From a bacterium (lineage in GTDB: Bacteria > UBA8248): a stretch of 64,000 nucleotides of DNA. The stretch lies in NCBI GenBank assembly GCA_963692865.2, contig OY843592.1, positions 3,360,001 to 3,424,000 on the forward strand. The letters run 5' to 3'. Below the pieces are notes generated by a model that was not told where the DNA came from, did not search any database, and saw only the letters and a program-made list of their open reading frames with translations. Position 1 is the first letter of the stretch. Every line of letters begins with the position of its first letter. This document shows, in pieces, positions 20,476-56,276 of this stretch. Made by a program: the position numbers and the translations under genes.

Positions 20476-20937
20476 TCAAACGCGCTGATTCTGCGCTTTT
20501 TGAGGTTCCGCCGTCTCCGCATCGACCGCGCATCCCTCCACCCAAGACACACCACTCTCGCCGTATTCCTTCTTCCATATCGGCACGATCTGCTTGATGC
20601 GGTCGATCGCGTAGCGGCACGCCTTGAAGGCCGCGTCCCGGTGGGCGGAGGCCGCCGCGATGCCCACCGCGATATCGCCGATTGCGAGGGCGCCCACCCG
20701 ATGGGCCATCGCCAGGTGCGTGACGCCGAAGCGCTCTTCGATCTCCTCAGCCACCTGGCGCATCTTCTTCTCCGCCATCCCAGGATATGCATGGTATTCG
20801 AGGTGCGTTACCCCCTGCCCCGCGCTATGGTTGCGAACCTTGCCCACGAACGTGCAGAGTCCGCCGAGTTCGGGAGAAGCGAGGCTGTCCGCCAACTCGT
20901 CCATGTCGATGGCGGAATCGGTGATGCGGCAGATCAT
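20476..20937 (-). CDS. moaE: Molybdopterin synthase catalytic subunit
   Basis: FVGKVRN, LEYHAY, HRVG, VPIWKKE; ATGA overlap with moaD. Confidence 0.93.
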   Translation of the reverse strand: MICRITDSAIDMDELADSLASPELGGLCTFVGKVRNHSAGQGVTHLEYHAYPGMAEKKMRQVAEEIEERFGVTHLAMAHRVGALAIGDIAVGIAAASAHRDAAFKACRYAIDRIKQIVPIWKKEYGESGVSWVEGCAVDAETAEPQKAQNQRV

Positions 20938-46601: not shown

Positions 46602-47342
46602 ATGTCCACGATTTCCAGCATCGAATGGACCGAGATGACATGGAACCCGGTGACCGGCTGCACGAAGATCAGCCCCGGATGCAAGCACTGCTACGCCGAG
46701 AGGATGTCGAAACGGCTACAGGCCATGGGAATGAATAAATACAAAAACGGATTTTCCATAGCCACCCACGATTCATCTCTCGATGAACCATTGAGGTGGA
46801 AGAAACCGCGCCTCGTCTTCGTCAACTCCATGTCCGATCTGTTTCACAAGTCAGTGCCGTCCGGTTTCATCGAGTCCGTTTTCGAGGTGATGAACCGCGC
46901 GCCTCGGCACACGTTTCAGGTACTCACCAAGCGGCCGAACCGCGCCGCTCTGCTCGGCAGGAGGCTGAACTGGACGCCCAACATCTGGCTCGGCGCGAGC
47001 ATCGAATCCGAAAAATGGCTCGGGCGTCTCGCGCCGCTCAGGGCAACCGGCGCGCGGACGAAGTTCCTCTCCCTCGAACCCCTGCTCGGCCCCTTGCCAA
47101 GCTTGAATTTGACGGGCATCGACTGGGTGATCGTCGGTGGGGAGTCCGGGCCGGGCGCGAGGCCGATGGAGCCGGACTGGGTGAGGGAGATTCGCGACAA
47201 CTGCGTACACAGCGGCACGCCCTTTTTCTTCAAGCAATGGGGCGGCGTATTCAAGAAAAAGACGGGCCGTGTGCTCGACGACAGAACGTGGGACGAAATG
47301 CCGGAGGCGGCGCGATTGCGCACGGACGAGACATGCGGATAA
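46602..47342 (+). CDS. DUF5131 / phage Gp37-Gp68 family protein (three-Cys motif)
   Basis: [51 protein letters not shown]. Confidence 0.9.
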
Positions 47343-48470: not shown

Positions 48471-48619
48471 AACGCTCCCCACTGGGCGACAATGCCTGTT
48501 AAGGAGGGAGTAATTGTAAACATGCGTAGCGTGACCTTGAAGAAATCCCCTCTCCACTCGACACCATCTCCATCAAAATATATATTATAGATATAATCTT
48601 TTGAGAGGAGGATAATTGC

Positions 48620-48859
48620 ATGGGTGCGAAATCGCACATCGCCAAATGGGGCGACAGCCTGGCCGTCCGCATCCCGAAGCCCATCGCCGAGCAATGGGGC
48701 GTCCGGGAAGGTTCGGCCATCGAGATGAGCGCGCGCGGCGACCGGGTGGTGATGCGCAAGAGAGGCTACCGGCTGGCCGACATGCTCGCCGAGATGAACG
48801 CGGACAACCTCCACGCCGAACAGGACGCCGGCACGGCGCAGGGCGCCGAGGCGTGGTAG
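48620..48859 (+). CDS. mazE: AbrB/MazE family antitoxin
   Basis: KWGDSLAVRIPK, Y.L.DML, G.E.W. Confidence 0.88.
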   Translation: MGAKSHIAKWGDSLAVRIPKPIAEQWGVREGSAIEMSARGDRVVMRKRGYRLADMLAEMNADNLHAEQDAGTAQGAEAW

Positions 48860-49218
48860 CGAGACGGGAAGTTACCGGCGCGGACTACGTTCCGGGCAGA
48901 GGCGACGTCGTCTGGCTATCCTTCACCCCCCAGGCCGGACACGAGCAGGCGGGCCGCCGCCCCGCGCTGGTCGTCAGCCCGCGAAGCTATAACGAGAAGA
49001 GCAGTCTGGCGCTGTTCTGCCCCATCACTTCGAGAGCCAAGGGCTATCCCTTCGAGGCGGCGCTGCCCGCCGATGGCCCGGTCACGGGCGTGGTTCTCGC
49101 CGATCAGGTGAAGAGCCTCGACTGGCGGGCCAGAGGCGCGCGCCTGGCGTCCAAAGCTCCGCCGCGCGTGGTGGGCGAAGCGCTGGAAAAACTGGCCGTC
49201 CTCCTGGAGCAGGACTGA
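48853..49218 (+). CDS. mazF: MazF/PemK endoribonuclease toxin
   Basis: YVP.RGDVVW..F.PQAGHEQAGRRPALVVSP, CPITS, DQVKSLDWRAR; GTG start overlapping mazE. Confidence 0.92.
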   Translation: MVARREVTGADYVPGRGDVVWLSFTPQAGHEQAGRRPALVVSPRSYNEKSSLALFCPITSRAKGYPFEAALPADGPVTGVVLADQVKSLDWRARGARLASKAPPRVVGEALEKLAVLLEQD

Positions 49219-50255: not shown

Positions 50256-50916
50256 CCCGACGACGACGCGGTCCGGCGCCAGTCGCCCGCAGCGTCGCCG
50301 AACCGGCCTGCCGGGAGCGCCCGGAAACCGAAGCGCTCATGGAGGCTTCTCGTCCGTTTCTCCCTCGAAGAAGGTTTCTTTCCGGCGACGCCGCCGAAAG
50401 ATACGCCGAAAGACACGCCATTCACGGACACGGCGGATACGCGGGGGGAGGCGTCTTTGGGGCGAACGCCCGGCAATCTCCGCGCCGCCCCGGCCGCTCG
50501 AACCACGCATTTCCCCGCAGTTGCGGGTTCCGGGGCGGCGTATCATTCTCCCGCTCGACGCGACGCCGATCCGGGAACCGCCCCGCGAGAATCCCCCGTC
50601 GCGCCGTCCGGGCGCGCGGGAGAGGGCGTCACCGGGACGGGCGCCGGGCGGCGAAATCGAGACGAATCAATTCTGAAAAATAAGATAAAATTGGATAAAT
50701 TCACGACGTTTTTCGATAAATTTCCGGCGTTTTTCCCGGGGCGTCCGGGGCGTTCTCGGGGGCGTTCTCGCGCGATGCAGGCGCCCCGGCCGGCGGCTCC
50801 GCAATCCGGGTTCAGGCGCCCCGGCGCCGATCGGAGGGCGCGCCGCCGCTTCCGGATGCGAGGCGGCGGGAGACGGCGGGGCGGTTTTCGGCCGCCGTTT
50901 CCCCCTCTCGCGCCGG

Positions 50917-51031
50917 TTATCCACAGAAAAACACAACATTTGGTGATAACGTGTGGGTAACCTCATATATTTTGTGTATATTCGTTTTTGGGGTATTGAC
51001 AGACGGGGGCAAAGCATACTACATTTAGTGG
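50917..51031 (+). promoter_or_regulatory. nrdJ promoter with NrdR boxes and DnaA boxes
   Basis: TTATCCACA (50917), TGTGGGTAA (50952), NrdR-like ACACAACATTTGGTGA (50931) and ATACTACATTTAGTGG (51016), TTGACA (50996). Confidence 0.65.
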
Positions 51032-51100
51032 CACGGCTTGATTTCGTCATACCAAATGTATCCCCACCACGGCGGGGCGCTCTTGCGGAGGAGGCTGGCA

Positions 51101-54100
51101 GTGGAGTTTGAGAGGCATTTCACCCGGGACGGAGATGAAGCATACCGCGGCATCCGCTTCGCGCCGCGCGCCTCGCGCATCACCAACCCGGACGGCTCGG
51201 TCGTCTTCGAGGCGAAGGACATCATGGCGCCGGAGAACTGGTCCCAGGTGGCCGTCGACATTCTGGCGCAAAAATACTTCCGAAAAGCCGGCGTCCCCGC
51301 CCATTCGAAAAAAATTCCCGAAGACGGCGTGCCCGAGTGGCTCCAGCGCTCGGAGCCGGACACGGAGAAACTCGAGTCCCTGCCCGAGGAAGAGCAATTC
51401 GGATGCGAGCGAGACGCCCGGGACGTTTTCCACCGCATGGCGGGGTGCTGGACGTATTGGGGCTGGAAACACGGCTATTTTCATACCGAAGAAGACGCCA
51501 AGGCGTTTTACGAGGAGCTTTTATACATCCTGGCAAGCCAGATGGCGGCTCCCAACTCGCCGCAGTGGTTCAATACGGGCCTCCACTGGGCCTACGGCAT
51601 TACGCGCCCCGCACAAGGCCATTTCTATTGCGACCCCGAAACCGGGGAAATACGCCGCTCCACCAACGCTTATGAGCGTCCCCAGCCCCATGCGTGCTTC
51701 ATACAATCGGTGAGAGACGATCTCGTCAACGAGGGCGGGATCATGGACCTATGGACGCGCGAGGCGCGCATCTTCAAATACGGCTCGGGAACCGGCACGA
51801 ATTTCTCGAGCCTGAGGGCGGAAGGCGAATCCCTCTCGGGAGGCGGAAAAAGCTCCGGCCTGATGAGTTTCCTCAAGATTGGGGACCGCGCCGCCGGCGC
51901 CATCAAGTCGGGCGGCACGACGCGCCGGGCGGCGAAGATGGTCACGCTCGACATCGACCATCCCGACATCGAGGAATTCATCAACTGGAAGGTGAATGAA
52001 GAACAGAAAGTAGCCGCCTTGGTATCAGGCAGCAAGATGTGCAACCGGCATATGAACGCCATTCTCGGAGCTTGTCTCGAGGGGAAGAACCTGGGCTTGA
52101 ACGGCACCTTCCACCAGCCGGACAAGAACCCATCACTCGCCAAGGCGGTACGCGCCGCCAGATTCGCCGGCGTTCCGGACAACTACATTCATCGCACCCT
52201 TCAACTCGCGCGACAAGGCGTCACCGAAATCGAGTTCGAGGAATTCGACACGAATTGGGAGGGCGAGGCCTACACTTCGGTATCCGGGCAAAACTCAAAC
52301 AATTCCATACGCGTATCAGACGGGTTCATGAAAGCCGTCGAGAAAAACACGGATTGGAGCCTGATTCGGCGCACCGATGGGGAAATCGCCGGCTCCGTCA
52401 GCTCCAAAGAGCTTTGGGATCAGATTGGATATGCGGCGTGGTGTTGCGCAGACCCCGGCCTCCAATTCGACACGACCATCAACGACTGGCACACGTGCGC
52501 CACCGATGGACGCATCAACGGCTCTAATCCCTGCTCCGAATACATGTTCCTCGATGACACCGCATGCAATCTTGCGTCGATGAACCTCATGAAATTCCTG
52601 GATACCGAAAAGAACCATTTCCAGATAAAAGACTACCGCCACGTTATTCGGTTATTAACGGTCGTCCTCGAGATTTCAGTGCTCATGGCGCAATTCCCCA
52701 GTGAAGAAATAGCCAAGCGCTCACATGAATACCGAACCCTGGGGCTTGGATACGCCAACCTCGGCACTGTTTTAATGGTTCTCGGTATTCCTTACGATTC
52801 GCCGGAAGCGGAAGCATGGTGCGGCGCTCTCACATCCATCATGACTGGCTGCTCGTACGCCACCAGCGCCGAGATGGCCGGAGAACTAGGCGCTTTCGCA
52901 AGGTACCAGGACAACCAAGAGCATATGTTGCGAGTTCTGAGAAACCACCGCCGAGCAGCTTATTCAGTGCCTGAAGCCGAATACGAAATGCTCTCGAAAA
53001 CACCAAAAGGAATCGTTGCCGAAATCTGTCCCCACTATCTTCTCCAAGCGGCACGAGAGGCATGGGATGACGCGTTGGCCATCGGCTACCGAAACGGTTA
53101 CCGGAATGCGCAAGCCACCGTCATCGCGCCGACGGGCACCATCGGCCTGGTGATGGATTGCGATACAACGGGAATCGAGCCGGATTTCGCTTTGGTGAAA
53201 TTCAAAAAACTGGCCGGAGGCGGTTATTTCAAGATCATCAACCAGTCTGTTCCTCTTGCCTTACGGCATCTGGGCTATGACGACGAAGAGATACGCGAAA
53301 TCGTCGCCTACTGCCGAGGGCGCGGCACCCTCACGAATGCGCCTCATATCAATCCAGAATCTCTGCACGCAAAAGGATTTACCAGCAAGACCCTCGAAAA
53401 GGTGGAAGCCGCGCTTGAAGGGGCGTTTGAAATTCAGTTCGCCTTCAACAAATACTCCCTAGGTGAAGACTTCTGCCGTGAGCAATTGGGGCTCGATGAA
53501 GCGCAAATCGCCGACTGGAATCTGAATCTGCTCGAAGCCATCGGTTTCACTCCGGAACAAATAACCGAAGCGAATGATTTCGTTTGCGGCAAAATGACGC
53601 TCGAGGGCGCACCCAATCTAAAAGAAGAGCATCTGGCTGTTTTCGATTGCGCGAGCAAATGCGGGCGCGAAGGCAAGCGCTTTATCAGCCCCTTGGCGCA
53701 TGTTCGGATGATGTCGGCGGCGCAGCCTTTCATATCGGGCGCCATCAGCAAAACCATCAACATGCCCGTTGAATCGACGATTCAAGACATATTGGATATC
53801 TATCATGAATCGTGGCAACGGATGACCAAAGCCATTGCGATTTACCGTGACGGCTCGAAACTAAGCCAACCGCTTTCCGCGCAAAGCGAGGCGGAACTCT
53901 TTTGTGATGTCGGCGAGGAAGAAACAACTTCCCAAAGCGCTCCGGTTCACGTAGCCCAACAGATCGTGCGCCGGATTATTTACCAATCCAGAAGACGCAA
54001 GTTGCCCACCCGCCGTGGTGGATACACGCAAAAAGCCGTCATCGGCGGGCACAAAGTGTATCTTAGAACCGGCGAGTACGAAGATGGTTCTATCGGCGAA

Positions 54101-54691
54101 ATTTTCATAGATATGCACAAAGAAGGCGCCGCTTTCAGAAGCCTCATGAACTGTTTCGCCATCGCAATTTCGCTGGGACTCCAGCACGGCGTTCCCCTGG
54201 ATGAATTTGTGGACGCCTTCGTCTTCACGCGCTTCGAACCCGGGGGCATGGTCTCGGGCAACCCGCACATCAAGATGAGCACATCCATCATCGATTACAT
54301 CTTCCGTGAGTTGGCGGTTTCATATCTCGGACGCCACGACCTTGCGCAAGTCGTTTTGGAGGATCTGAGAAGCGACACCATTGGGCGCCCACAGGAAGAG
54401 ATTCCCGAATTCGACGCCGAGGAAGAAGAAGCGATTCAAACCGTATTTCCAGGAGCGGATACGAGCGCACCACGCAGTGACCGGGTAAGTTTGAACTATG
54501 AAAAAGAATCCGCCCACGCTTCCCTGACGCCGGTAACAGAAACAGGTTCCGCTCTCGATTCACGTATCGAAGAAGCCCGCGCCAAAGGTTACGAGGGTGA
54601 GGCATGCAGCGATTGTGGTTTGTTCACCTTGGTAAGAAACGGCACCTGCCTGAAATGTATGACATGTGGCGCGACGAGTGGATGCTCTTGA
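51101..54691 (+). CDS. nrdJ: Vitamin B12-dependent (class II) ribonucleotide reductase
   Basis: [35 protein letters not shown]-terminal TSCPD-like region and CxxC..CxxC..GCS tail; GTG after GGAGGAGG. Confidence 0.96.
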
Positions 54692-54700
54692 AATAACTTA

Positions 54701-54996
54701 CCCGTCGTGGGGGAAACGGGCGGACTCTGCGACGGGACGAGAGTCGGGGGAGAATCCTCGGTGGGTTGTCCCCCGACTCTCACCAAAAATGGAATTTTAG
54801 CGAATTCTCTTGCTGCGGGGGAAACGGGCGGACTCTGCGGCAGGACCGGGAGCCGAGGATAATACACCTCGGGGGTTGAGTCCTTGGCTCCCACTATTAA
54901 GTTGAATAAGGTTCCCTGCTGCGGGGGAAACGGGCGGACTCTGTGGCAGGTCGAGAGCCGGTGAAGTCTCCTGGGGGGAGTTCTTCATCGGCTCTC
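54701..54996 (+). ncRNA. Tandem array of three two-hairpin structured units (unknown family)
   Basis: Invariant GGGGGAAACGGGCGGACTCT at 54709, 54817 and 54923; covarying flanking stems and second hairpins. Confidence 0.6.
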
Positions 54997-55006
54997 CCTT
55001 TCCCGC

Positions 55007-55035
55007 TTGACACCCGGAGTTCCTTCGCCTACCTT
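55007..55035 (+). promoter_or_regulatory. sigma70-like promoter of tRNA-Ala
   Basis: TTGACA-17 nt-TACCTT. Confidence 0.6.
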
Positions 55036-55048
55036 CAAGTTCCTTTGT

Positions 55049-55124
55049 GGGGGTGTAGCTCAGATGGGAGAGCGCGTGGATCGCACCCACGAGGTCAGGG
55101 GTTCGAATCCCCTCACCTCCACCA
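55049..55124 (+). tRNA. tRNA-Ala (CGC)
   Basis: 76-nt cloverleaf, G3:U70 pair, CGTGG/CCACG anticodon stem with CGC, encoded CCA. Confidence 0.95.
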
Positions 55125-55141
55125 GCGCAATTTCCTGAAAT

Positions 55142-55996
55142 TCAATCCCACACGTCAAGCATAGCGAGAGCCGCCTCTCGCGTCCTCATCCCTTCTCGTA
55201 CTCCACGCTTTTCCGCCATCTCGTTCATGCATGAAACGACGCCGTCTTCCCATGTGCTCATCACATCACCAATGCGCGCGCTCATGGCTCCGACCGCCGC
55301 CACCGCAATCCCCTCTCGCGCCAGATAGGGAAAAGAAGCGATACCGGAATCATCTTTTCCCCGTCCCGCGTCATTCGCAATCACACCTCTAAGATTGAGC
55401 TTAATGACATGGGGGACGAGAGTGAGCCCGCAATGTGACGCTTGAATAAAAACATCATCTGGCCTTGGTTCCTGCATAGAGCGCAAGACGGGAATTCCCC
55501 ATGAGGCACGTATATTACCATTCGGAAATTGCTCTAGTTCATATATTCTATCATCTAGGCTTTCTTCGACAATCACTTTCCGTCCTTCTTCGGCATCGAG
55601 CAAATAATCCGATGCCTCAGCAATGGACTGACCAATTTCAACACCAAGAGTTTGCGCTACTTGATTCGCATGGCCGACTACGCCTTCATAAACAGATTTT
55701 CCTACGGCGAGTCTGGCGGACATGGTCTCACACGCCACTGCAGGCACGTGATAATTCTGAGCCAAGTGAAGACCGCTGATCCCTGCATCGTCCTTTCCAA
55801 CTCCTGCAGCATGGGCAATAATTGCCCTCACCCCTAACCGCATTGCCCAGGCAATCGTCATTCGTGCAGCGTAAGAACCCGCAACGAGAACGTCCCTTCT
55901 CCCAACCTTCTCGCCAAAATACGTCATCGAATCCGCCGAAAGAATACGGCCGCGCACGTCTTCATCATGAATCGTCTGTTCATCCATCGTCATCAT
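55142..55996 (-). CDS. Hypothetical protein with an internal domain duplication
   Basis: Two copies of AG(V/R)GKDD(A/S)GI...MSAR...GVV...N..A...GV..G; start uncertain. Confidence 0.7.
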   Translation of the reverse strand: MMTMDEQTIHDEDVRGRILSADSMTYFGEKVGRRDVLVAGSYAARMTIAWAMRLGVRAIIAHAAGVGKDDAGISGLHLAQNYHVPAVACETMSARLAVGKSVYEGVVGHANQVAQTLGVEIGQSIAEASDYLLDAEEGRKVIVEESLDDRIYELEQFPNGNIRASWGIPVLRSMQEPRPDDVFIQASHCGLTLVPHVIKLNLRGVIANDAGRGKDDSGIASFPYLAREGIAVAAVGAMSARIGDVMSTWEDGVVSCMNEMAEKRGVREGMRTREAALAMLDVWD

Positions 55997-56108
55997 ATTT
56001 TCTTTCGCAAAGCGTGAAGCAAAATGGGTATATTGCAGATATGCCAGATGAAAAAATCGCCCGGCTGATATCTCAACCGGGCGTTGAATGATTTTCTCCT
56101 GCCAGAAG

Positions 56109-56276
56109 CTAGTAATCAGCAGGAGCAATTCCCCCTTCGCCGTCACTCAAAAAAGAGAAATCGACACTTTCATCGTCGTCAGACACATCATAATCCAAAT
56201 CCGTTGGCAATACGTCTCCAGACTCAGCAAAAAACTCATGGTCCAAGACAACATCACTTTCATTGAACTCGATCAT
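56109..56276 (-). CDS. Small, highly acidic hypothetical protein (55 aa)
   Basis: GAGGAAG before ATG; 18 Asp/Glu and no Lys/Arg. Confidence 0.45.
   Translation of the reverse strand: MIEFNESDVVLDHEFFAESGDVLPTDLDYDVSDDDESVDFSFLSDGEGGIAPADY

Follow-up and report, generated by a model that had tools for sequence, protein, structure and literature searches.

What are the three similar units that lie between nrdJ, the gene of a class II (B12-dependent) ribonucleotide reductase, and the gene of tRNA-Ala(CGC), and what might they do there? The units occupy the gap between the two genes (54692–55048) in the 64-kb stretch of DNA that was analyzed, which is referred to here as the window. A previous description of this stretch, the sequence-only reading, proposed an array of structured RNA of an unrecognized family, and the present analysis follows up on that proposal.

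The nrdJ locus

The nrdJ gene is found on the + strand at 51101–54691 within an open reading frame of 51038–54691 that ends with a TGA stop codon, and its product matches the Pfam families PF02867, PF08471 and PF12637 (TSCPD). The GTG codon at 51101 is likely to be the start of the gene since the resulting protein of 1196 aa equals its best homolog in length (94% identity, 100% of query). The G+C content drops gradually from approximately 0.61 to 0.53 inside nrdJ (around 51100–52600), with the window at about 62% before the drop and about 52% after it. A chimeric contig was suspected from this drop and discarded; because the nrdJ product is so similar to its best homolog over the full 1196 aa, there is no sign of an assembly join.

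The region upstream of nrdJ contains a perfect TTATCCACA at 50917–50925, which is the DnaA-box consensus, and two AT-rich imperfect palindromes (~50932–50975) that resemble NrdR boxes, with about 11–12 of 16 positions agreeing by eye. Two promoter-like sites, GTGATA-17-TATATT at 50943–50971 and TTGACA-18-TACATT at 50996–51025, are also present, and no cobalamin riboswitch was found in this upstream region. Further away, a PemK/MazF-like toxin domain is encoded on the + strand at 48616–49218 (PF02452), and a DUF5131 open reading frame at 46602–47342 (+) matches the candidate defense families PDC-M41B and PDC-M30B. Since both adjoin a low-G+C stretch at 44–46 kb (0.484), this region may be a small island.

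The downstream neighbor of the array, tRNA-Ala(CGC), is located on the + strand at 55049–55124 and is conserved across the related loci described below. A convergent open reading frame of 334 aa (55142–56146, - strand) ends 18 nt beyond the tRNA gene and occupies the same position in 12 of 17 related loci. In its product, a G-x-G-K-D-D-x-G-I motif is repeated internally, and no Pfam family above cut-off, no NCBIfam family and no PADLOC match was found for it.

Anatomy of the array

Three + strand units are present at 54701–54781, 54808–54892 and 54915–54996, each composed of a first hairpin (hairpin 1) and a second hairpin (hairpin 2). The first unit begins 9 nt past the nrdJ TGA codon, and this distance ranges from 9 to 20 nt past the stop codon across loci. 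A direct-repeat finder returned three copies with start-to-start distances of 108 and 106 nt, and a repeat finder placed the inverted repeats of hairpin 2 at 54739–54781, 54848–54892 and 54953–54996. Together with folding, these results reproduce the three-unit + strand array of the sequence-only reading in its coordinates, its sequences and its two hairpins per unit.

Hairpin 1 consists of a covarying outer stem, a GGGG/CUCU inner helix and a 12-nt loop, GAAACGGGCGGA, while hairpin 2 is a helix of 12–14 bp with a CCU..GG apex. The 21-mer GGGGGAAACGGGCGGACTCTG has three occurrences in the 64-kb window when both strands are searched with up to three mismatches, compared to an expectation of 0.00 from 100 shuffles.

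In unit 1, hairpin 1 (54701–54736, +) has the outer stem CCCGUCGU/GCGACGGG, and the GGGG/CUCU helix pairs 54709–54712 with 54725–54728 around the loop at 54713–54724. Hairpin 2 (54739–54781, +) has 13 bp and an apical CCU..GG stem-loop, and is followed by ACCAAAAA. The first linker (54782–54807, +) is AU-rich and poorly conserved, and is shortened to 14 nt in some relatives. Hairpin 1 of unit 2 (54808–54845, +) presents the invariant core at 54817–54837 on an outer stem of UCUUGCUGC/GCGGCAGGA, and the hairpin 2 that follows (54848–54892, +) has 12 bp, a AUAAUACA internal loop and a CCUCGGGGG apex. The second linker (54893–54914, +) is again AU-rich and poorly conserved. Unit 3 is composed of a hairpin 1 (54915–54950, +) with the outer stem CCUGCUGC/GUGGCAGG and the core at 54923–54943, and a 14-bp hairpin 2 (54953–54996, +) that is probably the 3' end or terminator hairpin of an nrdJ-array transcript.

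Folding energies on the + strand were -58.1, -49.4 and -51.2 kcal/mol for units 1–3, with z-scores relative to shuffles of -7.2, -5.1 and -3.5. On the - strand, the folds were much weaker at -42.6, -30.3 and -40.9 kcal/mol, a loss of 10–19 kcal/mol.

Distribution of the array

Relatives were sought with the core 18-mer GGGGAAACGGGCGGACTC in one genome per species, covering 185,579 species, and 35 loci were identified. A covariance model made from the three units of the window separated these loci cleanly. Seventeen loci in 17 genomes contributed 43 further units that scored 72–108 bits, for a total of 46 units including the window, of which 37 are distinct. The other 18 loci, from Streptomyces, Aeromonas, Chloroflexota and others, matched in the core only (at most 22 bits), had neither NrdJ nor tRNA-Ala beside them and were set aside as chance matches. 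As carriers were found only through an exact 18-mer, the distribution of the family is a lower bound.

Four carrier records are named, and these are metagenome-assembled genomes of Nitrospinota or Nitrospinaceae. In 17/17 loci, the array is immediately preceded by the C-terminal part of NrdJ (73–95% identical) and followed by a same-strand tRNA-Ala(CGC); the synteny that the sequence-only reading had named as a check is thus complete. With the window included, three units are found in 11 sources, two in six and one in the remaining source.

The window was compared with the 4227 covariance models of Rfam 15, and only two tRNA matches reached the gathering threshold. In a permissive scan of 54500–55200 (to E = 10), the best match to the array, to miRNA models with a threshold of 100, scored 19.5 bits, and RNaseP_arch, for which the threshold is 84, scored 18.2 bits. 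The 17 related loci returned 16 tRNA matches at gathering thresholds and nothing more, which agrees with the earlier impression of an unrecognized family. No match to the array was found in phage and plasmid collections using blastn in its distant mode, and neither keywords nor the core entered as text led to a description of the element in the portion of the literature that is open to full-text searching. The array is a strongly supported family of structured RNA from a clade of marine-type Nitrospinota, apparently not described before, and is confined to the gap between nrdJ and tRNA-Ala(CGC).

Covariation and the strand under selection

Across the 46 units, 99.6% of 924 stem cells of the alignment form standard pairs, and compensatory changes on both sides occur in 17 of 25 pairs. 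None of 500 column shuffles reached any of the five measures used, and when the 3' partners were slid by 1–3 columns as a control, pairing fell to 47–52%. RNAalifold predicted the same two helices and added a small apical helix in hairpin 2. When orthologous units were considered alone, changes on both sides of a pair were observed between species in 8 pairs of the first unit, 10 of the middle unit and 9 of the last. Since pairs also change among orthologous units of one array position, the covariation is not merely an effect of comparing paralogs, and the covarying stems that had been read from three copies extend to the family.

The non-Watson-Crick pairs are informative with respect to strand. 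All 14 non-Watson-Crick pairs among the 75 stem cells of the window are G-U or U-G, with no A-C and no mismatch. Among the 1150 stem cells of all units there are 178 G-U or U-G pairs, 2 A-C and 4 G-G. From the ratio of 178 to 2, selection must therefore have acted on + strand RNA, as the sequence-only reading had argued from the window. The array is a + strand structured RNA element of one to three tandem modules, each approximately 81–85 nt in length and containing two hairpins.

The same counts bear on the view that the units are a repeat at the DNA level, either a REP, BIME or MITE-like palindrome or a DNA site bound by a protein. GC-rich palindromic repeats in an intergenic position are what such elements look like; however, strand-specific G-U pairing reflects selection on one RNA strand, and all units share one orientation. 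The 18-mer scan identified a single locus in each of the 17 carriers, eight of which are chromosome-level records, and the 46-sequence covariance model found no further copy in the 64-kb window with every position scored and filters off. The dispersed copies that would have spoken for a REP or MITE are thus absent, as is similarity to phages or plasmids, and a DNA-level repeat is hardly credible. REP and BIME elements in enterobacterial 3' UTRs do offer a likeness, since these palindromes, too, are rich in G+C, follow a stop codon and can stabilize the upstream mRNA, but REP sequences number in the hundreds per genome and occur in both orientations, whereas the array occurs once per genome in one.

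Conservation of the core and history of the array

The sequence AACGGGCGGACUCUG, 15 contiguous bases, is identical in 46/46 units. The full 20-mer is unchanged in 38 of 46, and its variants affect no positions other than the first two bases of the loop and the initial G of the inner helix, so that the last 10 of the 12 loop bases never vary. The inner helix GGG(G)/CUCU retains fixed G-U wobbles: columns 12/32 and 14/30 are G-U in 44 and 46 of the 46 units, respectively, and never G-C. The CCU..GG apex of hairpin 2 is also fixed across units.

This conservation may be compared with that of the surroundings. Over the final 300 codons of nrdJ, identity to the window at fourfold-degenerate sites is 41–71% in the 17 loci. 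Among the three-unit loci, the nine closest have whole units that are 88–99% identical to those of the window and linkers that are 46–85% identical. The nearest relative in another genome is the unit at the same array position for 43 of the 46 units, and paralogs within one locus are 51–73% identical outside the core. Because units group by array position and paralogs have diverged outside the core, the duplications are old, and the identical core reflects purifying selection and not recent copying. Some arrays have since been reduced or rearranged. The middle unit in two loci (L007 and L017) has lost hairpin 1 and retains hairpin 2, and the only unit of another (L012) joins a hairpin 1 of the first type to a hairpin 2 of the last type, as would be expected from recombination through the shared core.

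Coding potential was considered as a source of the conservation and rejected, given that the linker lengths differ by non-multiples of three (27/25/22/14 and 22/21/20/18/17 nt) and that the substitutions are pairwise compensatory.

The sequence-only reading also pointed out that GACUCU of hairpin 1 can pair with the 5' arm of hairpin 2, and it listed a tandem switch among the possible functions. The alternative pairing with AGAGUC is complete in unit 1 of the window, as described; over the family, complete pairing requires a hairpin 2 that reads GAGAGUC, and all six pairs are available in 10/46 units, whereas 32 units can form five and 4 units can form four. At the key position, a change from U to C is compensated in the 3' arm of hairpin 2 itself and not in the core. 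A helix between the core and hairpin 2 was consequently rejected as a switch, and the proposal of a tandem switch loses its footing.

A tandem aptamer for a small molecule, or a self-cleaving ribozyme, could still be imagined to sense a nucleotide or a cobalamin-related ligand and alter the fate of the mRNA. Approximately 20 fixed bases between covarying helices are also the signature of a catalytic or ligand-binding core, and the tandem layout recalls cooperative aptamers. The two hairpins of each unit are nevertheless independent, there is no junction, and a pseudoknot has no support, although the candidate partners of the loop are themselves invariant, which makes covariation uninformative on the latter point. 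No riboswitch or ribozyme family matched even at E = 10, and a riboswitch in a 3'-UTR position is, to our knowledge, without precedent. An aptamer or ribozyme is very improbable on these grounds.

Transcription of the array

The linkers span 14–27 nt across loci, and a strict consensus scan identified no promoter-like site in 54300–55300. Linkers of this length are too short for promoters and none was found by the scan, so the array probably lacks internal promoters. In the last units, at least five T residues are present in the 10-nt tail in 11 of 17 cases, compared to 0/17 for the first units. The last tail of the window, CCTTTCCCGC (54997–55006), is a weaker U-tract that was not called by a terminator scan; from its relatives, the transcript of the window would also be expected to end at the last hairpin.

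A promoter-like site for the tRNA gene begins where this tail ends. It is composed of TTGACA, 17 nt and TACCTT (55007–55035, +), and stops 13 nt short of the tRNA. Its second hexamer matches at 3/6 positions, for which reason the site escaped the strict consensus scan; however, a TTGACA-N17/18-TAnnnT site is found before the tRNA in 18/18 intergenic regions and ends 13–15 nt before it. With no room for promoters in the linkers, a U-tract at the last hairpin and a separate promoter-like site for the tRNA, the array is most likely the nrdJ 3' UTR, which would end with the last hairpin, and the tRNA most likely has its own promoter.

Such a position raises the question of whether the hairpins serve only in cis by terminating nrdJ transcription, shielding the mRNA from 3' exonucleases and insulating the strong tRNA promoter against read-through, with no partner in trans. 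The array does follow the stop codon directly and is itself followed at once by a conserved promoter-like site, its hairpins are very stable with the last one usually followed by a U-tract, and a single unit suffices in one genome. Terminators and stabilizers, however, need no fixed loop, and here 15 bases are unchanged in 46/46 units where neutral sites are near saturation. Hairpin 1 would also be unnecessary for termination. We regard a purely cis-acting 3'-end structure as unlikely.

The neighboring tRNA gene suggests another role. The modules could be processed by the enzymes of tRNA maturation or bind tRNA-Ala(CGC), with hairpin 2 of the first unit mimicking an acceptor/T-arm minihelix and serving as a substrate for RNase P. 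This hairpin has a helix of 12–13 bp and is followed by ACCA in 15/17 first units (54782–54785 in the window), much as a tRNA minihelix would be at its 3' end, and leads into an A-rich tail; tRNA-Ala(CGC) is adjacent in 17/17 loci, and the invariant loop contains GCG, the codon of that tRNA. Nonetheless, CCA is missing from the middle and last units, hairpin 2 lacks a G3-U70-type pair, and no tRNA-like or T-box Rfam model matches the array. By a simple count, a given triplet is expected in a 12-nt loop about 1 in 6 times, and the promoter-like site in 18/18 regions argues that the tRNA is transcribed on its own. A tRNA-linked role is thus quite unlikely, if a little less so than an aptamer.

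Complements of the core

When both strands of the 64-kb window were searched with the 21-nt core, the best site outside the array reached -33.6 kcal/mol, within the range of ten shuffled cores (-31.8 to -36.7 kcal/mol), and no site was found at the start region of nrdJ. An exact 11-nt complement of the core, CCGTTTCCCCC, is present at 50895–50905 in a GC-rich hairpin upstream of nrdJ. A match of this kind was equalled by 5 of 1000 shuffled cores in an 800-nt region, with the region having been picked after the match was seen. The hairpin (50852–50916) has a folding energy of -49.8 kcal/mol, with the core complement in its 3' arm and a resemblance to the core in its 5' arm. It scored 16.3 bits with covariance models (E about 0.3–0.7) and lies upstream of both predicted nrdJ promoter-like sites. 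As a partner for the core, this anti-core site may be considered a weak lead. A second exact 11-nt complement, CAGAGTCCGCC, at 20855–20865 (+) is probably due to chance, with 90 of 300 shuffles producing a complement of equal length in the window.

A match to ribosomal RNA was rejected as due to chance. The core has an 8-nt complement to positions 1399–1406 of E. coli 16S rRNA; however, matches of at least 8 nt in 16S, 23S or 5S rRNA were obtained with 201 of 500 shuffled cores, and the energy of the core/16S duplex was worse than for 31/40 shuffles, the rRNA used being that of E. coli.

A model for the function of the array

A partner that reads the sequence of the core appears to be required, because a terminator or stabilizer hairpin would not fix 15–20 bases. 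We tentatively prefer to read the array as a source of several copies of a processed 3'-UTR RNA that would pair, through the invariant core, with a conserved RNA. A general, RNase E-type endoribonuclease would cleave the precursor containing nrdJ and the array within the AU-rich linkers, which, being unconserved and flanked by very stable hairpins, are plausible sites for such an enzyme. Cutting would release stable RNAs of approximately 85–105 nt; as a variant, the modules may stay on the mRNA. The core would then pair with an equally conserved partner RNA, beginning with the open loop and continuing into the weak G-U helix. A weak helix beside an open 12-nt loop would make a natural entry point for pairing. 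A riboregulator or RNA sponge could in this manner be supplied in as many as three copies by one nrdJ transcript, and its output would be tied to nrdJ transcription.

The most serious competitor, nearly as probable as the pairing model, is that the units are protein-binding modules. Hairpin 1 would be the site of an RNA-binding protein, and the array would either titrate that protein as a sponge similar to CsrB/RsmZ or recruit it in cis for the stability or 3'-end formation of nrdJ mRNA. An invariant loop with invariant closing wobbles on a covarying stem is a typical pattern of protein sites, several copies would suit titration, and the fixed CCU..GG apex of hairpin 2 could provide a second contact. 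The loop of hairpin 1 also exposes a GGA at its 3' edge in 46/46 units, in keeping with the repeated, loop-exposed GGA motifs of CsrB and RsmZ. With respect to CsrA, the context of this motif is GCGGA in all units, while CsrA and RsmE prefer A(N)GGA, and a CsrA site needs few fixed bases and not 15–20. The array also differs from CsrB and RsmZ by having one GGA per hairpin 1, inside an invariant block of 15–20 nt, and by most likely belonging to an mRNA 3' UTR and not to a stand-alone gene. No gene for an RNA-binding protein is linked to the array, whose neighbors are nrdJ, the tRNA and, in 12/17 loci, the 334-aa open reading frame that belongs to no family.

Pairing with RNA is, by inference, slightly favored over a pure protein site because the G-U pairs of the inner helix never become G-C, as expected if both strands also pair elsewhere. 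The fixed G-U pairs and the invariant 15-nt block would suit a protein or ligand pocket equally well, and seeds directed at ribosome-binding sites do not usually have G-rich loops. Arrays contain 1–3 copies and two genomes lack the middle hairpin 1, so dosage is not strictly needed. It is solely the position of the array that suggests a link to the regulation of ribonucleotide reductase. Among the functions that were originally listed, a processed 3'-UTR RNA or multicopy sRNA fits the anatomy best and the tandem switch is not supported. The more general proposal of a polycistronic riboregulator, in which up to three modules in the 3' UTR of a housekeeping mRNA, that of nrdJ, are cut out and act in trans through the invariant 20-nt core, either pairing with an invariant RNA or titrating a protein, is best regarded as doubtful at present.

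Comparison with known systems

The closest parallels are the 3'-UTR-derived sRNAs of enterobacteria such as CpxQ, SdhX and MicL. These are encoded on the mRNA strand right after the stop codon, share the terminator hairpin of the mRNA, carry a short conserved segment before a covarying 3' hairpin and have an output coupled to the parent gene. The array shares with them its strand, its proximity to the stop codon, a terminal hairpin and a conserved single-stranded segment. It differs from what is described for them in that the module is repeated 1–3 times, the conserved segment is G-rich and held within a closed 12-nt loop, and the array resembles no Rfam family in sequence. We know of no 3'-UTR-derived sRNAs with tandem modules.

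Sibling sRNA genes, including PrrF1/PrrF2, LhrC1-4 and the NsiR1 arrays, also place near-identical cores head to tail at one locus. Whereas each of these genes has its own promoter and terminator, the linkers of the array are 14–27 nt in length with no promoter-like site, and its copies must for this reason come from one transcript. Type III antitoxins (ToxI) and CRISPR arrays, in turn, resemble the array as tandem repeats on one precursor that could be cut into units. Neither a toxin endoribonuclease nor a cas gene is adjacent to the array, and its units are 81–85 nt in length with two hairpins. In place of a type III toxin, a tRNA gene is found downstream, followed by the 334-aa open reading frame with no Pfam, NCBIfam or PADLOC family. 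Unlike CRISPR, the "spacers" of the array are short AU-rich linkers (14–27 nt) with no unique sequence, and whole units are orthologous between species.

Implications for Nitrospinota

The array represents a new RNA family with an unusual layout in which tandem modules with an invariant core of 15–20 nt are most likely co-transcribed in the 3' UTR of an mRNA. If the modules are processed, they would constitute a repeat array that operates with no dedicated nuclease gene, unlike CRISPR and ToxI, and with no promoter for each copy, unlike sibling sRNAs. If they are released and act in trans, the range of bacterial multicopy regulators known to arise from one transcript would be wider. Nitrospinota are major marine nitrite oxidizers, and we know of no RNA regulators that have been described in them. 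The array offers a concrete and testable way to approach post-transcriptional control in this phylum, in connection with the synthesis of DNA precursors, and, if the proposal of a polycistronic riboregulator is true, it would couple deoxynucleotide synthesis to another process in these nitrite-oxidizing bacteria.
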